A stretch of DNA of 62,325 bases from Sedimenticola sp. (lineage in GTDB: Bacteria > Pseudomonadota > Gammaproteobacteria > Chromatiales > Chromatiaceae), in contig JALVEB010000188.1 of the NCBI GenBank assembly GCA_027008705.1, positions 1 through 62,325 of the forward strand, read 5' to 3'. Under the pieces are notes generated by a model. That model did not search any database. It was given only the letters and a program-made list of their open reading frames with translations, and had not been told where the DNA came from. Shown here in pieces: positions 2,880-29,666 of this stretch; position 1 is the stretch's first letter; the number at the start of each line of letters is the position of its first letter. Position numbers and translations under genes: made by a program.

Positions 2880-3464
2880 TTACGCCGGTGGCAGGGGGAT
2901 TCCCTCGGCCTCGAGCAGCTCGGTCAGAGCGATCAGCGGCAGTCCGATCAGGCTGTTCGGGTCCCGTCCATGCAGCGACTCGAACAGTACGATGCCCAGC
3001 CCCTCTGATTTGAAGGCGCCCGCGCAATCGAGCGGCCGATCACGTTCGACATAGCGTCGGATACGCGCTTCATCGAGCGCGCGAAAGCGTACCTTGTAGG
3101 TTTCGTCGAGCACCTGGCACTGGTCCGTCAAGGTATTCAGCAGACACAAACCGGTATGGAACACGACTTCCCTCCCGGACAGGCTTCGGAGCTGCTCGAT
3201 GGCGCGCTCCACGCTGCCGGGCTTGCCGAGGAGGACGCCGGCGCCGACCGCGACCTGGTCGCTGCCGATGATCAAGCCGCTCCGGCCTTGCGCGGCGACC
3301 GCCCGGGCCTTGGCTTCGGCGAGCCGTTGCACCAACGCGGCGGGCGTTTCTCCGGGGCGGCGATCTTCATCGATCTCCGGGGCGACACAGTCGAAGGGCA
3401 GGCCGAGCTTCTCCAGCAAGGCCTTGCGATAGCGCGAGGTGGAGGCGAGAGTCAGTTGCGGCAT
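2880..3464 (-). CDS. maf: Maf-family nucleoside-triphosphate pyrophosphatase (YceF-like)
   Basis: 194 aa. N-terminus LTLASTSRYRKALLEKLGLPF and the overall layout are typical of Maf/YceF. Confidence 0.8.
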   Translation of the reverse strand: MPQLTLASTSRYRKALLEKLGLPFDCVAPEIDEDRRPGETPAALVQRLAEAKARAVAAQGRSGLIIGSDQVAVGAGVLLGKPGSVERAIEQLRSLSGREVVFHTGLCLLNTLTDQCQVLDETYKVRFRALDEARIRRYVERDRPLDCAGAFKSEGLGIVLFESLHGRDPNSLIGLPLIALTELLEAEGIPLPPA

Positions 3465-17444: not shown

Positions 17445-18473
17445 ATGACGAAAGATCAATTGGCGCGCGCGGCGCAACAGATTGCGGATCTCCTCGAGAA
17501 CTGCGGATTGAAGGATGCCCTGAAACAGGCGTTGCTGCGCAAGAATCAGGGGGGAACGGCGGGGGATGCCTCGCCCAGTGTGATCGACGCCTATCAGAGC
17601 TTCTCCGCGCTGTCCCGGCGTTTCGACGTTGCGGAACGGCGCGTGCTGAAGGCGCTGAAACTCGGTTTTCTGCAACACACAGAGTTCTGGGTACGATTCT
17701 TGCAAAACAAGCTCGAACCCGAGATGATCCGCAACGCGCTGGAGCGGGTCTATCTGGCGCAGAAGTACCTGCCCGGATGGGTGGATCTGGTGAAGAACGA
17801 GATCGAGCTGGAGCTGGAAAAGCCGGTTCCCGAACGCAATGCGGCTTTGGTCGACCAGGAGATGCTGACGGTGCTCACCCGGCAGGAACGAGACATGCCC
17901 CCGTCGGTACGTGAGGTACAAGGCGTGATGACCTCGGTCGATGTCTTCCATGATGCCTGCTCGCTGCTGACGGGGAAAAGCGGTGCGTTGACCTTCCTCG
18001 GCAGTGAGATCTGTTTCGGCATGCGCATGCAATTCGTCGGTCCGGCGGAGACGATCCGGCTGATCAAGGAATCGATCCTGTCGATCTGGGACCGACGTCA
18101 GGTGATGTTGAACAACCCGGAAGGGTTCTGCGCGAGCGATCGCATCGACGATATTCCGGCGTTCGCCCTGCTGCGGGAGAGGATCGACAATGGCGAGATC
18201 GATGGCGTGCTTGGCGGGCAGATCCACACCATGCTGTGCGAGGCGTTCGAGCTGTTTCTCGGCGCCGGGGCGAGCATCCCCGAGCTCGAGCGCGCGGTCG
18301 AGGAGGATTCGGACCTGCTGATCGATTCCAGCCTGGCTTCGGAACAGACGCCGCACCGGCCCAAGGTGGTGGCGATCCGGAGTGCCCCGGCTCGCTCCCG
18401 GGATGCGAGCTTCGACGCCTGGGAAAACGAACGGGAGCAGTTGCTGAAGCTGGTTGACGAGCGCGGTATCTGA
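17445..18473 (+). CDS. Hypothetical 342-aa protein (orphan, no recognisable domain)
   Basis: Long ORF with protein-like composition and no obvious TM segment or signal peptide. Has its own AT-richer upstream region and its own terminator. Confidence 0.55.
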   Translation: MTKDQLARAAQQIADLLENCGLKDALKQALLRKNQGGTAGDASPSVIDAYQSFSALSRRFDVAERRVLKALKLGFLQHTEFWVRFLQNKLEPEMIRNALERVYLAQKYLPGWVDLVKNEIELELEKPVPERNAALVDQEMLTVLTRQERDMPPSVREVQGVMTSVDVFHDACSLLTGKSGALTFLGSEICFGMRMQFVGPAETIRLIKESILSIWDRRQVMLNNPEGFCASDRIDDIPAFALLRERIDNGEIDGVLGGQIHTMLCEAFELFLGAGASIPELERAVEEDSDLLIDSSLASEQTPHRPKVVAIRSAPARSRDASFDAWENEREQLLKLVDERGI

Positions 18474-18507
18474 CTGCGAAGTCGATGCGGCGGCAGAAAG
18501 ACCGCCG

Positions 18508-18539
18508 CCCCGCCCGGGGTGTTTCCGGGCGGGGTTTTT
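18508..18539 (+). terminator. Rho-independent terminator of the 342-aa gene
   Basis: ccccgcccgg / ccgggcgggg 10-bp stem followed by ttttt. Confidence 0.75.
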
Positions 18540-18557: not shown

Positions 18558-20540
18558 CTACACCAACCCGCGGTGGAAGAAGCCGATCACGACCAGGATC
18601 AACAGAACCAGGCCGATCGACAGCAGGGTAAAGCCCAGCACATAGGAAACGGTCTTGAAACGTTTCGATGGCGGTGGTACCAGGCGTTTGTCGAGCTCGC
18701 CGCTGGCCTTCAGTCGCTCGTACTCCTCGGGTCGTTCTTCCTTGAACTCCTCGAGATCCCAACTGCCGGTGAACATCACCGTGTCGAGCGGGAATTTGCT
18801 CGGACGGAAGTGGTTATTGAAGAAGTGCACGACGAACAGCGTCATCACCGCGAGGAAGGCCTCCAGGCCGTGCGCCATCGTCGCCAGGTTGAACACCCAG
18901 CCCGGCAGAAAACGGCTGAAAAACGGTGAGAACCACAGGATCAGGCCGGACAGACCGATCACCAGCGCACCCCAGTAGACCGCCCAGTAGTCGAACTTCT
19001 CCCAGTAGGCCCAACGATCAAAGCGTGGCGCTTCTCCCTTGCCGAAGAACCACTTGAACTGGCCCTTCATGTCTTCCCAATCCTTCTTGCGTGGCAGCAG
19101 CGAATCGGGGCCGAACCAGTCGAAGTCCTTGTCCTTGATCAGCTTGCGCAAGACCACGAAGGCATGGCCGAACACCGCGAGCAGAAACACCACGGCGGCG
19201 GTGCGGTGGACATAGCCGAAGCCGGTCGGCCCGCCGAACAGCTTGATTACGAACATCGCCCAGGCGGTGTCCGGGAACATCACCACCATGCCGGTCAGGG
19301 TCAGCGTCATCACCGACAGGGCCAGAGCCCAATGATTCAGCCGCCATTGCCATGAGAAACGGCGGAAATGACGCCCGCTGTCGTGGCGGATGCGCTTGGC
19401 GCGCACGCGAAAGCGCTTGCCGTCGACGGTGATCCATTCATACGGACGCGACTTCATCTCGCGCCAGAACCACAGCATCGAGTGGGTATAGAAGAAGACC
19501 AGCGTCAGGATGATGATCGCGATCATCGCGCGACCCAGCCACCACAGCTCCGGGTTGCGCTCGATGTCGCCGATATCGGCATGGGCGCGGAAATGCACGA
19601 AATCCGGACCGGCGTCTTCGTGACACTTGCGGCAGGTCTTGAGGATGTTTTGGGGCGAGACCTTGGACGCCGGGTCATCGATTTTGTGGGTATTGTGCGG
19701 ATCGTGGCAGTCCTTGCATTGCGCCACCTCGGTATTGCCGAGCCAGGCGAGCTGGCCATGGGTGGTGGCCTTATAAGAGCGCACCTCCTTCGAATGGCAG
19801 TTGCCGCATTGCTCGGTGATCACGCGATGGGTCTTCAGCGCGCCCTTTTCGGCGATCTCGTGGGCCGAGTGGCAATCGGTGCAGGTGGCGCTGTCGCCTT
19901 TCCACGGTGTCTTCAGGCTGGCGCCGTGGATCGAGCGGCGATACGCCTCCAGCTCCCTGGCATGGCATTTGCCGCAGGTCTCCGGCGCGTTCAGTTTATG
20001 CACCGTCGAGCGGATATCGCTTGACGGGAACACATAGTGCGCGGTATGGCAGTCGGCGCAGCCGGCGTTGTCCTTGGCGCCCTTGCGTCGGGCATGGATC
20101 GAGTGGGTGTAACGCCGGGTCTGAATGACGATATCCAGGTTGTCGCCAGCCAGCCACGGAGTGCGCTCCGGCGCCGCGCCCTTGCCCTGGGCGATATGAC
20201 AGCGAACGCAATCCGGTCGCTTCAGATGCTGCTTGTGCGGCAGTTGCCCGATGTCGGAATGGCAGTCCAGGCAGCCATAGCGGCCATGCACGCTCTGGTG
20301 CAGGGTCTCGGCGTCGATGTCCAGATGACGGAATCTGCCGAGGGTCTCGTCCGGTACGGCGAAGCCCTTCTGCCCGTGACATTTCAGGCAGTCGGCCTCG
20401 CGGATGCGCTCGCGCGGAATCACCGGTTCGCCGGGCAGCAGGCGCTTCCCGTCGCCCTTGGCGGCGGGCGCGCCGGCCCAGGCGCCATTGGATATCGCCA
20501 GCAGCAGGCCGGCGACCAGCAGATAGGGAAGGATCTTCAT
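18558..20540 (-). CDS. Nine-heme cytochrome c fused to a ~6-TM cytochrome-b-like membrane domain (CbcL-like putative quinol:cytochrome oxidoreductase)
   Basis: Signal peptide MKILPYLLVAGLLLAISNGAWA. Nine CXXCH motifs: CLKCH, CLDCH, CVRCH, CADCH, CGKCH, CTDCH, CGNCH, CKDCH, CRKCH. The C-terminal half has about 6 hydrophobic helices with conserved His (HWALAL, VHRTAAV..FGHAF, MAHGLEAF..VVHFF). The ATG overlaps the amt stop (ATGA). The listed 1055-aa ORF is an out-of-frame extension through amt. Confidence 0.8.
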   Translation of the reverse strand: MKILPYLLVAGLLLAISNGAWAGAPAAKGDGKRLLPGEPVIPRERIREADCLKCHGQKGFAVPDETLGRFRHLDIDAETLHQSVHGRYGCLDCHSDIGQLPHKQHLKRPDCVRCHIAQGKGAAPERTPWLAGDNLDIVIQTRRYTHSIHARRKGAKDNAGCADCHTAHYVFPSSDIRSTVHKLNAPETCGKCHARELEAYRRSIHGASLKTPWKGDSATCTDCHSAHEIAEKGALKTHRVITEQCGNCHSKEVRSYKATTHGQLAWLGNTEVAQCKDCHDPHNTHKIDDPASKVSPQNILKTCRKCHEDAGPDFVHFRAHADIGDIERNPELWWLGRAMIAIIILTLVFFYTHSMLWFWREMKSRPYEWITVDGKRFRVRAKRIRHDSGRHFRRFSWQWRLNHWALALSVMTLTLTGMVVMFPDTAWAMFVIKLFGGPTGFGYVHRTAAVVFLLAVFGHAFVVLRKLIKDKDFDWFGPDSLLPRKKDWEDMKGQFKWFFGKGEAPRFDRWAYWEKFDYWAVYWGALVIGLSGLILWFSPFFSRFLPGWVFNLATMAHGLEAFLAVMTLFVVHFFNNHFRPSKFPLDTVMFTGSWDLEEFKEERPEEYERLKASGELDKRLVPPPSKRFKTVSYVLGFTLLSIGLVLLILVVIGFFHRGLV

Positions 20541-21799
20541 AGCTTCTGGGTGAACTCCGGGTAAGCCTCGAGCCCGATCTCGGCGATATCGGCCCCTTCG
20601 TACTCCTCCAGCTCCGAGAGCCGGATGCCCATGGTCTTCTTCAGCGCCAGCCAGGTCAGATAGCTGGCGCCGAAGGTCCAGGCGAAGATCAGCGCGATGC
20701 CTTTCAGTTGCGCTGTCAGACTGGCCTCGGGATTCGAGAACACCACCGCGATCAGCCCCCAGATCGCGACCACGCCGTGAACCGAGATCGCGCCGACCGG
20801 ATCGTCGATGTGCGCGACGCGGTCCATCAGAATGATCGATACCACCACCAGCAGCCCGGCGACGAGACCGATGAAGGTCGCCAGCCCCGGGGTCGGGGTC
20901 AGGGGCTCGGCGGTGATCGCGACCAGTCCGGCGAGGATGCCGTTGAGTCCCATCGTCAGATCGGTTTTGCCGAACCAGAAACGCGACAGGATCAGCGCCG
21001 CGATGGCGCCGCCGGCGGCGGCCATGTTGGTGTTGACGAAGATCAGCGCGACCGCGTTGGCGTCGGCCACCGAGGTGATGGTCAGCTGGGAACCGCCGTT
21101 GAAGCCGAACCAGCCGAGCCACAGGATCATCGTGCCGAGGGTGGCGAAGGTCATGTTCGATCCGGGGATCGCCATCGGTTGCAGTCCACCGCCGGGCTTG
21201 GGCACATACTTGCCCTTGCGTGGACCCAGCAACAGCACGCCGGCCAGCGCCGCCGAGGCGCCGGCGAGGTGGACCACGCCGCTGCCGGCGAAATCGAGGA
21301 AGCCGGCCTGCTTCAGAACGCCGCCGCCCCATTGCCAGTACCCCTCGACCGGATAGATCAGGCCGGTCATCACCACCGCGAAGGCGAGGAAGGCCCACAG
21401 ACGCATGCGCTCGGCGACGCTGCCGGAGATGATCGACATCGAGGTGGCGACGAACACCACCTGGAAGAAGAAATCGGCGAAATAGGAATGCCGGGTCTCG
21501 CCCCCTGAGTTGACCACGGTCGCGAGGCTGTGGTCGAGGCCGAGAAAGAAACTCAGCGATGGCAGCCAGGCGTTGTCGCTGGCGCCGTACATGATGTTGT
21601 AGCCGACGAACATGTACAGGATCGAGGCGATCGCATACAGCGCAACGTTCTTGGTCAGGATCTCGGCGACGCTCTTGGTGCGCACCATGCCGGATTCGAG
21701 CATCGCGAAGCCGGTTGCCATCCACATCACCAGCGCGCCGGAGAGCAGCAGGTAGAGCGTGTCGGTCGAATAGATCAGTTCAATCAGTGTGGTTTCCAT
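20537..21799 (-). CDS. amt: Amt-family ammonium channel
   Basis: 420 aa, about 11 TM. Has DFAGSGVVHLAGA and VHGVVAIWG (twin-His pore) and WFGFNGGS. No glnK gene is adjacent. Confidence 0.88.
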   Translation of the reverse strand: METTLIELIYSTDTLYLLLSGALVMWMATGFAMLESGMVRTKSVAEILTKNVALYAIASILYMFVGYNIMYGASDNAWLPSLSFFLGLDHSLATVVNSGGETRHSYFADFFFQVVFVATSMSIISGSVAERMRLWAFLAFAVVMTGLIYPVEGYWQWGGGVLKQAGFLDFAGSGVVHLAGASAALAGVLLLGPRKGKYVPKPGGGLQPMAIPGSNMTFATLGTMILWLGWFGFNGGSQLTITSVADANAVALIFVNTNMAAAGGAIAALILSRFWFGKTDLTMGLNGILAGLVAITAEPLTPTPGLATFIGLVAGLLVVVSIILMDRVAHIDDPVGAISVHGVVAIWGLIAVVFSNPEASLTAQLKGIALIFAWTFGASYLTWLALKKTMGIRLSELEEYEGADIAEIGLEAYPEFTQKL

Positions 21800-21834
21800 C
21801 GGGTGCCTACCGCAATATGAATTCGCTACGGGAA

Positions 21835-21870
21835 CGCCGGCGCCACGGAAGGGGTTCCGTGGCGCCGGCG
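21835..21870 (-). promoter_or_regulatory. Very stable intercistronic hairpin between the hao-like gene and amt
   Basis: Perfect 16-bp stem cgccggcgccacggaa / ttccgtggcgccggcg with a 4-nt loop. No U-tract follows on the minus strand. Confidence 0.5.
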
Positions 21871-21886
21871 GGAGGGAGGGGCGTCG

Positions 21887-23524
21887 CTATTCGCGGTTCG
21901 CCGCCGCTTCGGCCTCGGCCTTCATGCGGGCTTTCATGAGGTTGAAGCCATGGTTGTCGTCATCCGACGGACGCCAAGCACGGGGCGGCTTGCCGCCTTC
22001 GAACCAGCGGTGCATCGGCGAGGCAAGCACCTCCTTCAGCAGTTTCTCGACCGCATCGGCGCCCTTGGCGTTGCCGTTCTCGCGGGCGTGCTTGATCGCC
22101 TCACGGATCTCCGGCACCAGGTCGATGTAGAAACGGTGCGCGACCTCGAAGACGCCTTCCCAGTGCACATAGTCCGGGGCGAACATCGCCGCGCCATGGC
22201 GCGCGCGCCGGCCTTCATGGTGCCACAGATAGAAGTAGTCCCACTCCACTGCCTCATTGAACTTGACCTTGTCGCGCAGGCCGTTCTTCAGCATTGCCGT
22301 GACCAGTTTCTTCGCCGGGATCAGGAACTTGTCGTTGAAGGTCACGACGAAGGTGTCGAGCTGCTCGAAATGGGCGTCGACAATGTTGTTGCCGTGGCAT
22401 GAGCGGCACACCCGCTTCATGTCCTTGCGGCGTTGCAACCAGGGCTTGACCTTCTTGCCTTTCTCGATCGCCTTCGAGTCGACCTTCGCCGAGACCGGCG
22501 CGCGCAGATTCCAGGCGATGCGGTCGCCGATGTCATGGGTCACCGGCAGATCCTTGGTGCGCGACATATGGCAGGTGGCGCAGGTCGGCGCGGCGTTGTA
22601 GTCCTCGCCGACGATCCATTTGTTGGAATTCAGATTCATCTGGTCCTTGTGGGCGCGGAACGCGATACCATGCGCCGATTCCTCATAGATCTCCTTCTGC
22701 GGATGATCCGGGCCCAGGTGGCAGCGTCCGCAGGCATTCGGCTCGCGCGCCTGGGCGGCGGAGAAGTTGTGACGCAGGTGACAGGCGCTGCAAGCGCCCT
22801 TCGAGCCATCCGGATTGATGCGTCCGATGCCGGTGTTCGGCCAGCTCGATTTGTCGAGCGAGCCGTCCGAGTTCACGCGCACGATCGATCCGTGGCAGGC
22901 GCCGCAGCCCATCGCGGTGATCGGCGAGGTGCCGGAGAGCGTCGGCGCGCCCTCGACGACCTCGGCGAGGACGTTGTCGAGCGAGCCGAGGATGTCGCCG
23001 GCGGTGGCGTGGTGGCTGCGGTCGAACTCGGCGACCTCGCGCTCGTGACAGCGCGCGCAGTCCTTCGGCGAGACGATCACCGAGATCACGAAGTCCTTGT
23101 GCATGATCGCGTCCTTGTCGTTGCGATCCGCCTTGTGGCACTCGTAGCAGCCGACATTGGCGCCGAAGTGCTTCGAATGGCCCCACTGGTCATAGATGCC
23201 CGGGGTCTTTTCGCGGTGACAGGACATGCAGGTGGCGCTCTCGCGGCTCAACTGATTGAAGCCGGACAGGATCTTGACCGGCTTTTCATCGTGCATCGCG
23301 ACCCGCGTGGTCTTGGCGGGCCTGGCCGCCGGCGCGGCCTGGGCTCCTGGCGCCGCCTTGACGAGCGGCGTGCCGGTCGCTTGTGGCGTGGGCGCCGCCA
23401 CCGGGGCCGGATGCATCGGCTGGGCGACGGGCAGCTGGGTATTGTTCCACCAGCCGTTCGCGGCGGCGAAGGCGGTGGTGGCGAGCAGCAGGGACAAGAT
23501 GCCCCCGGATAGAACCGACCTCAT
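21887..23524 (-). CDS. Octaheme cytochrome c of the hydroxylamine-oxidoreductase (HAO) superfamily
   Basis: Signal peptide MRSVLSGGILSLLLATTAFAA, then a Pro/Ala-rich linker. Eight CXXCH motifs: CMSCH, CYECH, CARCH, CGACH, CSACH, CGRCH, CATCH, CRSCH. About 545 aa, with a C-terminal WHHEGRRARHGAAMFAPDY-type segment. The start is moved to the Met preceded by GGAGAG. Confidence 0.75.
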   Translation of the reverse strand: MRSVLSGGILSLLLATTAFAAANGWWNNTQLPVAQPMHPAPVAAPTPQATGTPLVKAAPGAQAAPAARPAKTTRVAMHDEKPVKILSGFNQLSRESATCMSCHREKTPGIYDQWGHSKHFGANVGCYECHKADRNDKDAIMHKDFVISVIVSPKDCARCHEREVAEFDRSHHATAGDILGSLDNVLAEVVEGAPTLSGTSPITAMGCGACHGSIVRVNSDGSLDKSSWPNTGIGRINPDGSKGACSACHLRHNFSAAQAREPNACGRCHLGPDHPQKEIYEESAHGIAFRAHKDQMNLNSNKWIVGEDYNAAPTCATCHMSRTKDLPVTHDIGDRIAWNLRAPVSAKVDSKAIEKGKKVKPWLQRRKDMKRVCRSCHGNNIVDAHFEQLDTFVVTFNDKFLIPAKKLVTAMLKNGLRDKVKFNEAVEWDYFYLWHHEGRRARHGAAMFAPDYVHWEGVFEVAHRFYIDLVPEIREAIKHARENGNAKGADAVEKLLKEVLASPMHRWFEGGKPPRAWRPSDDDNHGFNLMKARMKAEAEAAANRE

Positions 23525-23617
23525 TGTTTGGACTCTCCAAGCTGGTTTCTGAAATGGGCGCGCGGGGCGTTCCCGCGGGGACTGCGACCGGTGCGCGCCG
23601 GCCGACAATCAAGAAAA

Positions 23618-23632
23618 GCAAGTTTTGTGCCA
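23618..23632 (-). promoter_or_regulatory. Sigma54 (RpoN) -24/-12 promoter upstream of the hao-like operon
   Basis: The minus strand reads TGGCACAAAACTTGCT, i.e. TGGCAC-N5-TTGC(T), matching the consensus TGGCAC-N5-TTGCW. It lies about 95 nt upstream of the ATG at 23524. Confidence 0.75.
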
Positions 23633-23844
23633 GTGTGTAACATCCGTGTCGGGGCAGAGGGTTGCGCCGTCGGACGAGCAAGAGCGAAATCCCCTGTTTT
23701 CGGGAATATTATTAGTTGCTCCTCATATAGTTATCTTATGAAATGTAGGTTTGTCCGGGCGCCTGCGGCATCGTGATTTCAGGAATGGAAGGAAGGTTGC
23801 GAAGGGGGACGCCGGGCCGCGCCCTTGATGCGGCGCCCCGCTTT

Positions 23845-23861
23845 TGCACCTGGATGGTGCA
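23845..23861. promoter_or_regulatory. NtrC-type enhancer palindrome
   Basis: TGCACCTGGATGGTGCA against the consensus TGCACCA-N3-TGGTGCA. It is intergenic (after the stop of the ankyrin gene), about 215-240 bp upstream of the sigma54 element, with an AT-rich stretch in between. Confidence 0.6.
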
Positions 23862-23909: not shown

Positions 23910-25976
23910 TCAGTGCGAGGCGCAAGAGCGATAACGCGGCGTGGAGGGGCCGGGGGCGGCCGTGGGCGACAGCGCCAGGCGGCCGTCGTCCAGCCAGCGC
24001 AGGCGCGGGTCGTCGGAGGCGAGGGGTTCGGGGAAGCCGGGCAGCGGGGTGATCGCGCGGCCGTTCGCGCCGAGCAGATAGAGACGCCGGTCGCGGTCGC
24101 GAAACAACGCCAGCCAGGCGCCACGCTCGGGCGCGCAGCGCTCGGCCCACAGCTGTCGGCGCGGATGTTCGATCAGCGCCGCGAGCCGGCGCCCGCGGGT
24201 CCAGCGGGTAGCGCTGTCGCGCGCGCGTTTCTCGATGCGCCCGGCGATGTCGTCGAAGCCGGCGTCCCAGGCGAGTTCGGCGAGGCGGCGCAGCGCGCTT
24301 GGCTCGTCGGGCAAGGCGCCGGCGGCGAGCAGGGCGCGTGTCGCCTCGCGGTCGCGCAGCGCCAGCGCCAGGCGCAAGGCGCTGCGTCCGCGCCGGTCTT
24401 TCGCGCGTGGGTCGGCGCCGGCGCGCAGCATCGGCTCGATGAGTTCGGAATAGCCGTGGTTCAGCGCCTCGAACAGCGGACTTTCTCCTTGCTCGTCGGG
24501 GTAGCGCTCGAGGTCGTCGATGGCCGCGAGCACGCGCCGCGTGACCGTCACGCCGCCTTGCTGGAGCAGGTAGGTGAAGACGCTGGCGCCGGCGTCGTCG
24601 GCATCGCCGCGCACCCGTCGCGGCAGCGGGCGACCGTTGCGCAGCAGTTCGATCAGCCGTTCCCAGTCATGTCGAAGCAGGGCGTCGCGGGTATCGTGGT
24701 CGGAGGGGTCGTCGCCGACCGGCGGCGCCGTCGACGCGCGCGCGGCGCCGTCGCGCTGGTTGATCGCCGAGAGGCGCAGGTAGCGGCTGTAGCGGTCGCT
24801 CAGGGTGGCTTCCTCGATATGGATGCCGTGGCGGCTCAGGACCGCGAGACGGGGTGCGTCATCGCGTCGCAAGGCGTCGTCGACCCAGGCGCTTCGACGC
24901 GTCTTTTCGAGCTTTCCGGCGTCGACGTGATCGAGCAGCAGGTCGAGCAGCGCGGTGGCGCCGGCGGCCTTGTCGAGGGCGTCCGGGCGATCGCCGCCGC
25001 GCGGGTCGGCGCCGTGGTCGAGCAGCGCCCGGGCGATCGCGAGACGTCGATCGCGCGCTCGGGAGGGCGGTTCTTCGCCGGCCCCGATGAGGCGCATCAA
25101 CGGGGTTTCGTCGCGCTCGTCGCGGCGGTTCGGGTCGGCGCCCTGTCGCAGCAATTGCGCGACAATGGCGACTGCGTTGGGGCGCGGCGGGGCATCGCGC
25201 GGGATCGCCGCCTGCAACGCGGTTTCACCGAACAGGTTCGGCTGGTTGGGATCGGCGCCGGCATCGAGCATCCAGCGGACGACCTCGGGCAGGTCGCGTC
25301 GCGCCGCCGCCACCAGTGGACCGCCACGATAATCGGCGCCACGCGCCAACAGCTCGCGGATGCGCGTGCGATCGGCTTTGTCGATCGCGCGTTCGAGCTC
25401 GCGCGACAGGTAGCCCTTGCGCAGTCGGGCCGGCGGGCTCGCCTGTGGCGGGGTGGCGGTGTCGGTGGCTTGCGCGCGGGCCCTGGCTTCGGTGAGGTCG
25501 AGCTGGTCGGCGATCTCGCAGCCGGCGGCGAAGGCCGCGGTGTCGAGCGGCACGCCATGCAACTGACAGCGCCAGCGATAGAGGTCTTGCTGGTCCGTGC
25601 TGGCTTCGGGCGTCAGCAGGATCCGGGCTTCGCGCGGGAAGGCGCCGCCGAGTCCCGCGACGATGCGCCCGCCGGGCTCGATGCGCACCGAGCGCAGCGC
25701 GCCCCGGTGGAAGGTATGCGGCGGAGCAAGGCCCAGTTCCTGGTTGTCGTTGGGGAAGCGGCCCTGTTGCTCGACGAAGGCGATGAGCTGAAGCTTGATG
25801 TCTTGCAATGCGGCCAGGGCCGATGACAGGCGCGCCGCGCGCATCGTCGCGCTGATGTATTGCGAGGCCGCGGCGCCGTCGCCGCCGGGTGGGACCAGGG
25901 TGGCCGGTCGCAGCAGCCAGAGTCCGGCGGCCAGCAGGGATGCGGCCGAGAGCAACAGGCGTAGCGGGCCTTTCAT
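23910..25976 (-). CDS. Membrane-anchored protein with a pilin-fold-like N-terminal domain, multiple ankyrin repeats and an unknown C-terminal domain
   Basis: N-terminal hydrophobic helix. Residues about 35-170 resemble a type IV pilin globular domain (SQYISATMRAARLS...GRFPNDNQELGL...WRCQLHG...AAGCE disulfide loop) but lack the prepilin G/FTLIE leader. Repeated ...LL..GADPN...G.T.L motifs are ankyrin repeats. The ATG overlaps the glnD stop (ATGA). Confidence 0.65.
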   Translation of the reverse strand: MKGPLRLLLSAASLLAAGLWLLRPATLVPPGGDGAAASQYISATMRAARLSSALAALQDIKLQLIAFVEQQGRFPNDNQELGLAPPHTFHRGALRSVRIEPGGRIVAGLGGAFPREARILLTPEASTDQQDLYRWRCQLHGVPLDTAAFAAGCEIADQLDLTEARARAQATDTATPPQASPPARLRKGYLSRELERAIDKADRTRIRELLARGADYRGGPLVAAARRDLPEVVRWMLDAGADPNQPNLFGETALQAAIPRDAPPRPNAVAIVAQLLRQGADPNRRDERDETPLMRLIGAGEEPPSRARDRRLAIARALLDHGADPRGGDRPDALDKAAGATALLDLLLDHVDAGKLEKTRRSAWVDDALRRDDAPRLAVLSRHGIHIEEATLSDRYSRYLRLSAINQRDGAARASTAPPVGDDPSDHDTRDALLRHDWERLIELLRNGRPLPRRVRGDADDAGASVFTYLLQQGGVTVTRRVLAAIDDLERYPDEQGESPLFEALNHGYSELIEPMLRAGADPRAKDRRGRSALRLALALRDREATRALLAAGALPDEPSALRRLAELAWDAGFDDIAGRIEKRARDSATRWTRGRRLAALIEHPRRQLWAERCAPERGAWLALFRDRDRRLYLLGANGRAITPLPGFPEPLASDDPRLRWLDDGRLALSPTAAPGPSTPRYRSCASH

Positions 25977-28600
25977 GCCCCGCCGGCCGTTTCGAGTCCG
26001 GAGAGCAGCGCCGCGCGCAGGCGCTCGCGGGTGGCCGCATCGAGCGGCTCGGCGTCCGGGGTGGTCAGCAGGAAGGTGTCGCGGGCTTCCTCGCCGACGG
26101 TGGCGATGCGCGCGTTGATCAGGCGGATACCCTGTTCGTGCAGGATCTCGGCGACCGTCGCGAGCAGGCCGGGGCGGTCCATCGCGCGCAGATGCAGGAT
26201 GCTGCGCTGGTTGTCCGGGTCCTGCTCGAACTCGATGCGGGTCTCGACTTCGAAATGCTTCAGCTGGCGCGGCGCGCGGCGCTGCCCGGTGCTCTCCGCG
26301 CCTTCATGCCAGAGGCGCGATTCGAGCTCATCGATGAGGCGCTCGATCGCTTCGGCGTCATCGAGTGGCGCGCCGTTTTCGCCGAGTACGAAGAAGCTGT
26401 TCAGCGTCATGTCCTGATCGAGGGTTTCGATGCGCGCGTCGACGATGTTCAGGCCCAGTAGATCCAGGATGCGCGTGGTCGCGGCGAACAGCCCCTTGCG
26501 GTCCGGGCCGTAGCTCAGGATCTCGGTGCTGCCGCGTTCGATGTTGCGGCGCAGACGGATCAACGGAGCGCGCGGGCCGGCATCGAGAATCTGACTGGTC
26601 TGCCAGGCGATCTCATCGGCGCTGGAGATGCGGAAATAGTCTTTGCTGAGCTGGCTCCACAAGGTGTTCACCCGGGCCTCGTCGAAGCCTTCCTCGGCCA
26701 GCTTCCACAGCGCCAGCTTGCGGTGTTCCTCGATCTGGCGTTCGCGATCCGGTCGCCGGCTTTCGGCATCGCGCTTGAGCATCGCCAGGGTGTCGAAATA
26801 GAGTTTTTTCAGCAGCGAGTCGCGCCAGCTGTTCCAGCGCTTGGGATTGGTGGCGCGGGCGTCGGCGACGGTCAGCAGGTAGAGGGCCTGAAGTCGCTGT
26901 GGGGTGGCGACCAGCGCGGCGAAGTCGGCGATCACCTTCGGGTCGTCGAGATCCTTGTGCTGCGCGGTCATCGACATCACCAGATGGTTGGCGACCAGCC
27001 ACACGATCAGCTCGCGGTCCTCGTCCGCGAGCTCGTGGGCGCGGCAGAATTCCTCGGTAATGCGCGCGCCGATCTTCGAGTGATCGCCTCCATAGCCCTT
27101 GCCGATGTCATGGAAGAGCCCGGCCAGATAGAGCCGTTCGGGTTTCTCCAGCCCGCCGATCAGGCGCGAGGCGAGCGGGAATTCGTCATGGAACTCGGGT
27201 ACCGCGAAGCGGCGCAGGTTACGCACCAGAAACAGGGTGTGTTCGTCGACTGTGTACTGGTGGAACAGATCGTACTGCATGCGCCCGACGATGTGTTCGA
27301 AGGCCGGGATGTAGGCGGCGAGCACGCCATAGCGGTTCATGCGTCGCAGCTCGTGGGTGATGCCGCGCGGTTGGCGCATGATCTCGAGGAACAAGGCGCG
27401 CGCGCGCGCGCTGGCGCGGAAACGATGGTCGATCAGGTGGCGATGCTCGCGGATCAGGCGGATGGTGCTGGCGCGCACGCCCTTGATCCCGGGATGTTGT
27501 TCGAGCAACAGGAAGATCTCCAGCAGCGCGTGGGGGTTCTGGATGAACAGCTGGTTGTCGCGCGCCTCGATGAAATCGCCACGCAGCTGAAAGGCCTGGG
27601 TGAGCGGGGTGATCGCCAGGGCGTCCGGATCGCCGAGGATGTCTTCCTCGAAATGCTGCAACAGCATCTCCGAGAGCCGGCTGACCTCCATCACGGTGCG
27701 GTAGTAGCCCTGCATCATGTGTTCCACCGCGAGATTGCCGGCATCGCTCCGGTAGCCGAGGCGGTCGGCGAGGGTGCGCTGATAGTCGAACAACAGGCGG
27801 TCTTCGTGGCGGCCGGTCAGCAGGTGCAGACCATAGCGCAGCCGCCACAGCTCGGTTTCGGCCGCGCGGAGCGCGTCGTATTCGTGTTCGCGCAGAAAGC
27901 CCTTGTCGACCAACTCTTGCAGTGATTGGATGCCGTAGTGGCGTTCGGCCACCCACAGCAGGGTCTGGATATCGCGCAGCCCGCCCGGGCTCTCCTTGAT
28001 ATTGGGTTCCAGGATGTATCCGCTGTCGTCGAAACGCTTGTGGCGTCGGGCCTGTTCGTCGAGCTTGGCGTTGAAGAAGGCGCGGCTCGGCCAGATATGC
28101 GCCGGCCCGGTGCGCTCGCGCATCCGATAATACAGGGTTTCCTGGCCGCACAGCAGGCGTGCCTCGAGGAGGTTGGTCATGACCGTGACATCGTCGCGCG
28201 CCTGACGCTGGCATTCATCGGGGGTTCGCACCGCGTGACCGACCTCCAGGCCGGTATCCCACAGGCGGATCAGAAAGGCCTCGATGGCATCGTTCAAGGC
28301 GTCGTCGTCGTCACGCTCGACCAGCAACAGGATATCGACATCGGAGGCCGGATGCAGCTCGCCCCGGCCGTAGCCGCCGACCGCCACCAGCGCGGCGCGT
28401 CCGTCGAGCGCGTCGGGCCACAGCTGGCGCAGCAGATAATCGGTATAGCGGCACTGGCAGGCGACCAGCTCGCGCACCGATTCGCCGGCCCAGAAACGCT
28501 CGGCGGAGAGTTCGCGCAGTTCGCGCAGGGCCTTGGCGCAGGTTTGCGGATCGGCTTTCGGTGGCAGTGACTCTAGGATCTTTTTTGCATGTTCAATCAT
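25973..28600 (-). CDS. glnD: Bifunctional [protein-PII] uridylyltransferase / uridylyl-removing enzyme
   Basis: 875 aa. Nucleotidyltransferase GGYGRGELHPASDVD, HD domain LFHDIGKG and two C-terminal ACT-like regions. Confidence 0.9.
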   Translation of the reverse strand: MIEHAKKILESLPPKADPQTCAKALRELRELSAERFWAGESVRELVACQCRYTDYLLRQLWPDALDGRAALVAVGGYGRGELHPASDVDILLLVERDDDDALNDAIEAFLIRLWDTGLEVGHAVRTPDECQRQARDDVTVMTNLLEARLLCGQETLYYRMRERTGPAHIWPSRAFFNAKLDEQARRHKRFDDSGYILEPNIKESPGGLRDIQTLLWVAERHYGIQSLQELVDKGFLREHEYDALRAAETELWRLRYGLHLLTGRHEDRLLFDYQRTLADRLGYRSDAGNLAVEHMMQGYYRTVMEVSRLSEMLLQHFEEDILGDPDALAITPLTQAFQLRGDFIEARDNQLFIQNPHALLEIFLLLEQHPGIKGVRASTIRLIREHRHLIDHRFRASARARALFLEIMRQPRGITHELRRMNRYGVLAAYIPAFEHIVGRMQYDLFHQYTVDEHTLFLVRNLRRFAVPEFHDEFPLASRLIGGLEKPERLYLAGLFHDIGKGYGGDHSKIGARITEEFCRAHELADEDRELIVWLVANHLVMSMTAQHKDLDDPKVIADFAALVATPQRLQALYLLTVADARATNPKRWNSWRDSLLKKLYFDTLAMLKRDAESRRPDRERQIEEHRKLALWKLAEEGFDEARVNTLWSQLSKDYFRISSADEIAWQTSQILDAGPRAPLIRLRRNIERGSTEILSYGPDRKGLFAATTRILDLLGLNIVDARIETLDQDMTLNSFFVLGENGAPLDDAEAIERLIDELESRLWHEGAESTGQRRAPRQLKHFEVETRIEFEQDPDNQRSILHLRAMDRPGLLATVAEILHEQGIRLINARIATVGEEARDTFLLTTPDAEPLDAATRERLRAALLSGLETAGGA

Positions 28601-29382: not shown

Positions 29383-29666
29383 GGCATTTGTGCCCTGTGT
29401 GGGGGTGTGGGGAGAACGGTGCGGGGTTTGTCCGGAAAGGCTGGATATGGTATAAAACCGACCGCCTGATGGCAATTGATCCCGCTCCGCGCCGTGGTGG
29501 CGGGAAATTCGCGCGGTCACCGTCACGCCCGGCGGGGTGCCCTGGTCATGAGCCGGGGTTGCCGGGCGGGGTGGCCGCAAGAGCAACCCCGGAAACGTCG
29601 CGCATGCCGCGCCGGCCGATGGCCGGAGGGCAGGCTGCCGCGTTTCCTCCTGTTTTGGAGAACTCC

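Follow-up and report, generated by a model that had tools for sequence, protein, structure and literature searches.

Reductive enzymes of the hydroxylamine oxidoreductase (HAO) family are already known, as are the quinol dehydrogenases that act as their partners. Here, the closest described systems are compared with a locus of Sedimenticola sp. (assembly GCA_027008705.1, contig JALVEB010000188.1, positions 1-62,325 of the forward strand; this stretch of 62,325 nucleotides is hereafter the window), in which three co-directional genes and their control region occupy the minus strand at 18558-23861. The genes are hao, encoding an HAO-family octahaem cytochrome c, amt, encoding an ammonium channel, and a third gene whose product joins nine c-type haems to a cytochrome b domain (hereafter the fusion). 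With a probability of roughly 0.55, we propose that NtrC switches the locus on and that its products use electrons from quinol to reduce nitrite and/or hydroxylamine in the periplasm, the ammonium so formed being assimilated.

The membrane-associated octahaem cytochrome c of Ignicoccus hospitalis (IhOCC, structure 4qo5; Parey et al., 2016) resembles the hao product in its eight CXXCH motifs and in an aromatic residue other than tyrosine at the cross-link position of HAOs, and the alignment of the two proteins begins at haem 1 and extends into the helices at the C-terminus. It differs in being archaeal, in the only moderate similarity of the aligned stretches and in its unsettled role, and it has no known nonahaem/cytochrome b partner, amt gene or Ntr control. 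In vitro, IhOCC reportedly reduces nitrite and hydroxylamine. The Hao of Campylobacterota (epsilon-Hao), likened here by description, is also a Tyr-less octahaem member of the HAO family that works reductively, with electrons proposed to come from the quinol pool. Its partner, in contrast, is a small NapC/NrfH-type cytochrome, the roles discussed for it are respiratory ammonification or detoxification, and neither sigma-54/NtrC control nor linkage to amt has been described for it. This enzyme and the idea that it runs a hydroxylamine-ubiquinone redox module backwards ('reverse HURM') are associated with work by Campbell in 2009, Hanson in 2013 and Haase et al. in 2017.

In Nitrospira, the function of an assimilatory nitrite reductase has been suggested, on the grounds of context and expression only, for an octahaem cytochrome c (OCC, also termed octahaem nitrite reductase, ONR) that is encoded with a Rieske protein and cytochrome b in a region containing amtB, glnB and glnD (PMC6311188, PMC5767232). 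The likeness is one of concept, a periplasmic octahaem wired to a quinol-oxidising membrane complex, and the Hao family of the window, too, has a member beside a Rieske protein and cytochrome b (in locus L054, described below); the Nitrospira partner is, however, a bc-type complex, and its amt lies nearby rather than being embedded and translationally coupled. For the fusion, the likeness is architectural: CbcL of Geobacter sulfurreducens is an inner-membrane quinol oxidase in which nine c haems are fused to a dihaem cytochrome b (PMC13591261). CbcL, however, supplies PpcA-type cytochromes in extracellular electron transfer and not a dedicated octahaem enzyme. Work by Zacharoff in 2016 is said to have assigned to CbcL a nine-haem periplasmic domain and a dihaem b domain that together carry electrons from the quinol pool to periplasmic acceptors. 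NrfA, with NrfH or NrfBCD, likewise couples a periplasmic multihaem enzyme that takes nitrite to ammonium to interchangeable membrane quinol dehydrogenases, but it belongs to another haem-protein family, carries five haems and a CXXCK motif, and is typically respiratory and regulated by FNR/NarL.

The initial annotation of this DNA had regarded the three-gene arrangement as undescribed. The gene order was indeed not found in the literature, and no description was found there of a nonahaem/FdnI-like fusion dedicated to serving an HAO-family enzyme, of conserved sigma-54/NtrC control of hao and fusion genes in sulfur oxidisers, or of an Amt embedded and translationally coupled within such a unit. 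The broader notion of an octahaem assimilatory nitrite reductase encoded near amtB had, however, already been proposed for Nitrospira, and in this respect the claim to novelty has to be narrowed.

The octahaem enzyme, the fusion and the Amt channel

All the sequence features reported in the initial annotation (three genes, motifs, overlap and control sites) were present; the hairpin after hao, the terminator behind the fusion gene and the ankyrin-repeat gene, all described below, had gone unmentioned in it. The hao gene (21887..23524, minus strand, starting with the ATG at 23524) encodes 545 amino acids, starting with a Sec signal peptide and including a Pro/Ala-rich linker, and it has eight CXXCH motifs and no CXXCK, the active-site motif of TvNiR/ONR and NrfA. 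Its product scored 89.9 bits against PF13447 (Pfam cutoff 21.9). The best solved relative was 4qo5 (E = 2e-48, or 1e-68 with the family profile), followed in order by the Kuenenia reductive HAO 6h5l and then by Nitrosomonas HAO, the Kuenenia hydroxylamine oxidase HOX and hydrazine dehydrogenase; with the family profile, matches to 4qo5, 6h5l, 1fgj, 4n4j, 6hif and 6t5e spanned E = 1e-68 to 1e-15. No chain of octahaem tetrathionate reductase (OTR) or of MccA occurred among the PDB matches at E <= 1, and the family profile searched against the PDB gave no match to ONR and reached NrfA only at E = 0.5-0.7. The motif count, the above-cutoff Pfam score and the structures matched place the protein in the HAO superfamily, as had been suggested, and the grouping with OTR- or sulfite-type octahaem enzymes that would have refuted the suggestion was not seen in these matches.

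Asp273-His274 aligned with Asp267-His268 of Nitrosomonas HAO (NeHAO; CHLGPDHPQ versus CHSGVDHNN), so that the distal pair of the catalytic haem is kept, and both residues were invariant in 15 family members; an invariant arginine, Arg341, stood opposite NeHAO Tyr334. The cross-linking tyrosine of NeHAO, Tyr467, was located by its motif GGWTYTEGW from four C-terminal fragments of Nitrosomonas-type HAOs, and in a profile-profile alignment it fell opposite an invariant tryptophan, Trp455, between equally spaced anchors on either side (Pro450 and Arg464-x-Tyr466); IhOCC has phenylalanine at this position. Because tryptophan replaces the cross-linking tyrosine, the octahaem is assigned by alignment to the Tyr-less class of the HAO family, and it is predicted to be the periplasmic catalytic subunit of the system. 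An AlphaFold model built from a 15-sequence alignment was used neither for fold search nor for tyrosine geometry, since its mean predicted local distance difference test score (pLDDT) was 48.6. In a passage of a paper that cites Haase 2017, the Tyr-less epsilon-Hao is described as reducing nitrite and hydroxylamine in vitro while scarcely oxidising hydroxylamine (PMC8042395).

The fusion gene (18558..20540, minus strand) encodes 660 amino acids, in which a signal peptide and nine CXXCH motifs precede a membrane domain of six transmembrane helices at the C-terminus. It scored 47.4 bits against PF01292 (cutoff 30.1), with a weak match to TIGR01583. The membrane domain of its structural model was confident, and its best structural match, with a probability of 1.0 and a TM-score on the target of 0.70, was FdnI of E. 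coli formate dehydrogenase-N (1kqf_C); next came HyaC, the cytochrome b of hydrogenase-1. Across 17 homologues, six histidines of the membrane helices were invariant (403, 445, 459, 557, 572 and 577), and these supply the four-histidine ligand set of a dihaem cytochrome b (403, 445/459, 557 and 572). Residues 557 and 572 are 15 apart, the corresponding spacing in FdnI presumably being 14. What had been described as a histidine-rich domain of about six helices behind nine CXXCH motifs is therefore an FdnI/HyaC-like dihaem cytochrome b with its four-helix core, and the suggested CbcL-like architecture, with nine c haems and a dihaem b domain in one open reading frame (ORF), is present. The wider superfamily of the fusion comprises 5041 representative clusters with a variable number of haems, and the named members of related clusters carry only the label 'cytochrome b/b6 domain-containing protein'. 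By analogy, the fusion is predicted to be a quinol:cytochrome c oxidoreductase.

These features also bear on an oxidative reading, in which a forward, HURM-like module would oxidise a reduced nitrogen compound (hydroxylamine or a hydrazine-like molecule) or some other small molecule at the octahaem and send the electrons through the nine c haems and the FdnI-like cytochrome b to quinone, forming an energy-conserving redox loop. Such a direction is that of the closest structural relatives, FdnI and HyaC, which reduce quinone in Fdn-N and Hyd-1, and an invariant tyrosine, Tyr452, stands close to the cross-link position. We nevertheless consider this reading highly improbable: the residue aligned with the cross-link is itself tryptophan and not tyrosine, the nearest solved relative is IhOCC rather than any oxidative HAO, no amo-like genes lie nearby, an enzyme that oxidised fixed nitrogen would be physiologically pointless under the control of NtrC, and CbcL, with the same architecture, oxidises quinol (PMC13591261).

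Between the two cytochrome genes lies amt (20537..21799, minus strand, 420 amino acids), whose product matched PF00909 with 335 bits over residues 16-413 and the NCBIfam model of the marine subtype, TIGR03644, with 597.5 bits (cutoff 514). Both pore histidines are kept, the segments VVH and SVHG aligning with the twin histidines of 6eu6, and together with the two family matches they confirm an Amt ammonium channel. No PII gene (glnK) stands beside amt in the window or in the related triplet loci, and the canonical amtB-glnK pairing is absent from them. The closest solved relatives were 6eu6 and two Amt fusion proteins of 644-661 amino acids, 8qj3 and 8qpf (E = 5e-60 to 4e-55), with E. coli AmtB ranking below these sensor-like proteins (E = 5e-41). 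We take 6eu6, 8qj3 and 8qpf to be sensor-type Amts, and because these rather than AmtB are the closest solved relatives, a gating or sensing role stays conceivable. It is doubtful that the Amt works physically with the nonahaem/cytochrome b protein, whose start codon overlaps the amt stop, beyond co-regulated transport; such a link may take the form of a metabolon capturing ammonium at its site of production or, alternatively, of an ammonium-sensing gate that slows quinol-driven electron flow once ammonium is sufficient. A gating pair of this kind would be the counterpart of AmtB-GlnK or of the sensor Amts.

Conservation and probable nitrogen control of the module

The octahaem family is large: it occurs in no fewer than 594 species-level genomes, and over 7900 proteins scored below 1e-10; no Campylobacterota occurred among the 80 best genome loci. 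The fusion gene directly follows hao in sulfur- and methane-oxidising Gammaproteobacteria in which the flanking genes are otherwise unrelated, carriers of the pair including Candidatus Endoriftia persephone, Thiohalobacter, Thiodiazotropha and Thiomargarita. The initial annotation had found the module unexpected in a sulfur oxidiser; sulfur-oxidising Gammaproteobacteria, Endoriftia among them, are instead its main home. The order hao-amt-fusion was restricted to the clade of the window, about 17 loci made up of the window, a close relative of identical synteny (L081), two metagenome-assembled genomes (MAGs) labelled 'Sedimenticola sp.' and about 13 metagenome contigs, and in all of these triplet loci the cytochrome b domain was at least 75% identical to that of the window. 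In a separate lineage (L112), amt lies directly upstream of hao, each gene having its own sigma-54 promoter, that of hao being an exact consensus.

The three-gene arrangement is thus real, but the conserved unit within it is hao with the fusion gene, the amt insertion being specific to one clade. In the proposed reading, the hao-fusion pair is the ancestral functional unit, and amt is a later addition that would place product uptake under the same control. From the gene orders compared, amt appears to have been recruited to the module twice, once within the triplet and once upstream of hao, and the insertion with its mostly kept overlap (~17 loci), together with the separate order in L112, ties the module to ammonium.

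Two pair-type loci, L116 (2460..4806) and L120 (3810..4869), carry unrelated ORFs between hao and the fusion gene; these inserts were rejected as amt, being a small coiled-coil-like ORF and transposase-like ORFs, and since they are there the hao-fusion junction evidently tolerates insertions other than amt. Between amt and hao, L112 contains a long perfect inverted repeat at 3135..3185 (CATGCACCATC...GATGGTGCATG), with the NtrC half-sites TGCACC and GGTGCA contained in its arms at a distance of about 27 nt. This repeat could be the terminator of amt, an activator site for the next, exact sigma-54 promoter, or both.

In the window, the sigma-54 (-24/-12) promoter TGGCACaaaacTTGCT lies at 23617..23632 on the minus strand, with about 95 nt between it and the hao start codon downstream. 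Described at first as near-consensus, it is an exact match to TGGCAC-N5-TTGCT and the only one in the window, where 0.08 would be expected by chance. The NtrC-type palindrome TGCACC-N5-GGTGCA at 23845..23861, about 225 bp upstream of the promoter, is equally exact and unique in the window (0.00 expected; 0/100 shuffles gave any). Between activator site and promoter, an AT-rich block was read directly from the sequence at 23705..23746 (minus strand), and a similar block occurs in L081 (CAACTATATGA); it is possibly a bending site for integration host factor (IHF).

All loci were scanned upstream of hao for the sigma-54 motif, requiring the GG and GC cores and allowing up to two mismatches to TGGCAC-N5-TTGCW. 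The motif was found at 26/33 hao-fusion pairs, 12/13 triplets and the single locus with amt upstream (1/1), that is, at 39/47 module loci in total, compared with 9/67 other hao loci and a background of 0.13 per kb per strand. NtrC-like palindromes with no more than two mismatches stood upstream of hao in 24/47 module loci (background 0.09 per kb), and Endoriftia and Thiohalobacter were among the loci positive for the upstream control motifs. Because the motifs recur in this way, sigma-54/NtrC-type control appears to be a property of the whole hao-fusion clade and no accident of the window; transcription would accordingly be expected to depend on NtrC.

Octahaem homologues of 49-59% identity were found with varying quinol-dehydrogenase partners: the nonahaem/cytochrome b fusion (36 loci), a NapC/NrfH-type tetrahaem cytochrome (7 loci, Agarivorans and Photobacterium being among the carriers), a membrane protein of NrfD type (in Verrucomicrobiota and Phycisphaerales) and, in L054, a Rieske protein with cytochrome b, in a cluster that also holds NapAGHB and an Rrf2 regulator. 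Given that four types of quinol dehydrogenase replace one another and that one locus is linked to Nap, the octahaem is expected to be a periplasmic terminal reductase acting on nitrite. The exchange of partners resembles that of NrfA, which works with NrfH or NrfBCD, and connects the family with nitrite derived from nitrate.

Some of these partners could signal a respiratory or detoxifying role rather than an assimilatory one. As proposed for epsilon-Hao and for the octahaems of cable bacteria and Beggiatoa, the octahaem would act as a dissimilatory nitrite reductase, either in dissimilatory nitrate reduction to ammonium (DNRA) or from nitrite to nitric oxide (NO), or as a hydroxylamine/NO detoxifier; amt would merely have landed in a conveniently expressed locus. 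NapAGHB with an Rrf2-type regulator in L054 and the NapC/NrfH-type cytochromes are typically dissimilatory neighbours, related octahaems have been discussed as DNRA enzymes (PMC4914600, bioRxiv 10.1101/2020.02.22.960823), and the product of the reductive HAO of Kuenenia (HAOr) is NO (PMC8042395). The signals upstream of hao in 39/47 loci of the fusion-carrying clade are, however, of sigma-54/NtrC type and not of FNR, NarL or NsrR type, amt was recruited twice, in two gene orders, and nap and nor genes are absent around hao in Endoriftia and Thiohalobacter. On balance, we regard a respiratory or detoxifying role as unlikely.

As to the relatives themselves, L054 (4373..15439), from a Chlorobiota MAG, is ordered Rrf2 regulator, alginate-export-type porin, Rieske protein, cytochrome b, octahaem, NapA, NapG, NapH and NapB, and so joins a Nitrospira-like Rieske/cytochrome b partner to a periplasmic nitrate reductase. 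Three 'Sedimenticola sp.' MAGs (L044, L055 and L066) carry a second Hao paralog, 52-55% identical to that of the window, after which the next gene encodes a protein of ~860 amino acids in place of the fusion, identified in L044 as a molybdopterin oxidoreductase; MAGs bearing the label 'Sedimenticola sp.' hence have one or the other of two Hao systems that differ in their wiring.

Predicted transcript structure and proposed function

A hairpin with a 16-bp perfect GC-rich stem and no T-run lies 3' of the hao stop and before the amt start (about 21835..21870, minus strand); the 101-nt stretch containing it folds at -46.7 kcal/mol (z = -3.9). Strong hairpins of differing sequence occupy the same place after hao in 17/17 triplet loci and in most pair loci, and several of them carry T-runs, as terminators do. 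Downstream, the stop codon of amt and the start of the fusion gene overlap as ATGA at 20537..20540 (minus strand, read in the sequence), as the initial annotation had reported, and such an overlap or a gap of <=4 nt was seen in 14/17 triplet loci, the exceptions, where no overlapping or near fusion start was visible, being L096, L097 and possibly L088. A second promoter for amt and the fusion gene was considered and rejected, as sigma-54 motifs between hao and the next gene did not exceed chance (3 found versus 2.4 expected in 47 loci) and no sigma-70-like site was found for these genes in the window locus.

From its sequence and position, the window hairpin is likely an attenuator or an mRNA-stabilising element, and the simplest reading is a single promoter with attenuation or mRNA stabilisation after the gene for an abundant soluble subunit. 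The operon claimed in the initial annotation agrees with the shared direction of the genes, the ATGA overlap and the failure to find a second promoter; because a conserved, partly terminator-like hairpin follows hao, we can only infer that hao, amt and the fusion gene are co-transcribed across it.

The hairpin is also central to a purely regulatory association, in which hao, amt and the fusion gene would be adjacent but separate members of the Ntr regulon, the hairpin a true terminator, amt and the fusion gene expressed separately and no product captured, with the substrate of the octahaem perhaps no nitrogen oxide at all. Hairpins resembling terminators do stand behind hao in almost every locus, and several include a T-run; the amt and hao of L112 have separate sigma-54 promoters, and the amt is of an ordinary stand-alone marine subtype. 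This explanation must contend, however, with the lack of a promoter motif between hao and the downstream gene, both across the 47 loci and in the window, with an amt-fusion start/stop overlap that is kept in most of the clade, and with a pairing of hao and fusion gene that persists over many genera despite unrelated flanks. We would give it rather little credence.

Under the proposed nitrogen-acquisition function, for which we infer in which direction electrons flow and what substrate and product are, scarcity of fixed nitrogen would lead phosphorylated NtrC, bound to the palindrome, to activate the sigma-54 promoter. The first gene would yield a secreted HAO-family octahaem, probably a trimer, without the tyrosine cross-link that tunes HAOs to oxidation, and read-through of the hairpin would yield the translationally coupled Amt and fusion. 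The FdnI-like dihaem b domain of the latter would take electrons from quinol and pass them across or along the membrane to the nine periplasmic c haems and on to the octahaem, which would reduce nitrite (and/or hydroxylamine or NO) to ammonium, and the Amt would import the ammonium, produced or scavenged, into the cytoplasm for glutamine synthetase. More speculatively, the quinone site of an FdnI-type b domain would lie towards the cytoplasmic face, and in the quinol-oxidising direction the membrane potential would then push electrons from a high-potential ubiquinol pool to low-potential c haems; this driving force could be why sulfur oxidisers that depend on ubiquinone use the fusion rather than NrfH.

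A quinol-driven, nitrogen-controlled reductive module with its own Amt had been suggested in the initial annotation. The HAO type of the octahaem, Trp455, the sigma-54/NtrC motifs and the presence of amt in two orders speak for it, whereas the three genes have proved not to be the unit. Several observations weigh against the proposed function. FdnI and HyaC normally move electrons from the periplasm to quinone, and the architecture fits a quinone-reducing enzyme equally well. Only one perfect NtrC site occurs in the window, and activators other than NtrC can serve sigma-54 promoters. No nitrate or nitrite reductase or transporter genes were found in the 62-kb window. Three residues ahead of the cross-link position, which was placed by profile alignment only, stands the invariant Tyr452. 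With a terminator-like hairpin after hao, amt and the fusion gene are perhaps far less expressed than hao, or are expressed from an unseen promoter. Lastly, the Tyr-less HAOr of Kuenenia takes nitrite only to NO and not to ammonium (PMC8042395).

If the proposed function is correct, many sulfur-oxidising Gammaproteobacteria, some of them related to animal symbionts (Endoriftia and Thiodiazotropha, for example), gain nitrogen from nitrite through an Ntr-switched, quinol-driven periplasmic enzyme of the HAO family, which would offer another path besides cytoplasmic NirBD or NirA. It would also give a concrete role to genes annotated as 'hydroxylamine oxidoreductase' or 'multiheme cytochrome', which are often taken as markers of nitrification or DNRA in metagenomes, and would extend the Nitrospira OCC hypothesis to a second, different membrane partner. 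The compact unit of two or three genes is suited to probing what makes HAO-type enzymes reductive and which product they release.

Flanking genes and minor features

On the upstream side, glnD (25973..28600, minus strand), noted initially as a neighbour of the operon, lies two genes upstream of hao, but this adjacency was restricted to the window and one close relative, L081, and was rejected as a meaningful link. Between glnD and the promoter region stands an ankyrin-repeat gene (23910..25976, minus strand, 688 amino acids), whose product has an N-terminal signal or transmembrane segment; its start codon and the stop codon of glnD share a 4-nt overlap. The GC content around it reaches 72.7% in a 2-kb stretch, against about 63% elsewhere. 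The glnD-ankyrin pairing recurs in L081, where the ankyrin protein is only 55% identical to that of the window and GlnD 82%.

On the downstream side, a bidirectional intrinsic terminator at 18507..18535 separates the fusion gene from a convergent ORF of 342 amino acids (17445..18473, plus strand); its 13-bp stem contains 10 GC pairs and is followed by a T-run on the plus strand and a weaker one on the minus strand. A counterpart of this ORF at the same position was found only in L081 (348 amino acids, 55% identity, without a recorded Pfam family). Elsewhere, the window holds housekeeping genes (tsf, dxr, rseP, bamA, lpxB and pgi) and genes of a cbb3 oxidase. In an Rfam scan of 17-30 kb, the sole match was a t44 RNA (RF00127) at 29492..29587 on the plus strand, far from the locus, with 47.4 bits against a gathering score of 44; it is an ordinary leader element and sits between a map-like gene and the ribosomal/tsf region.

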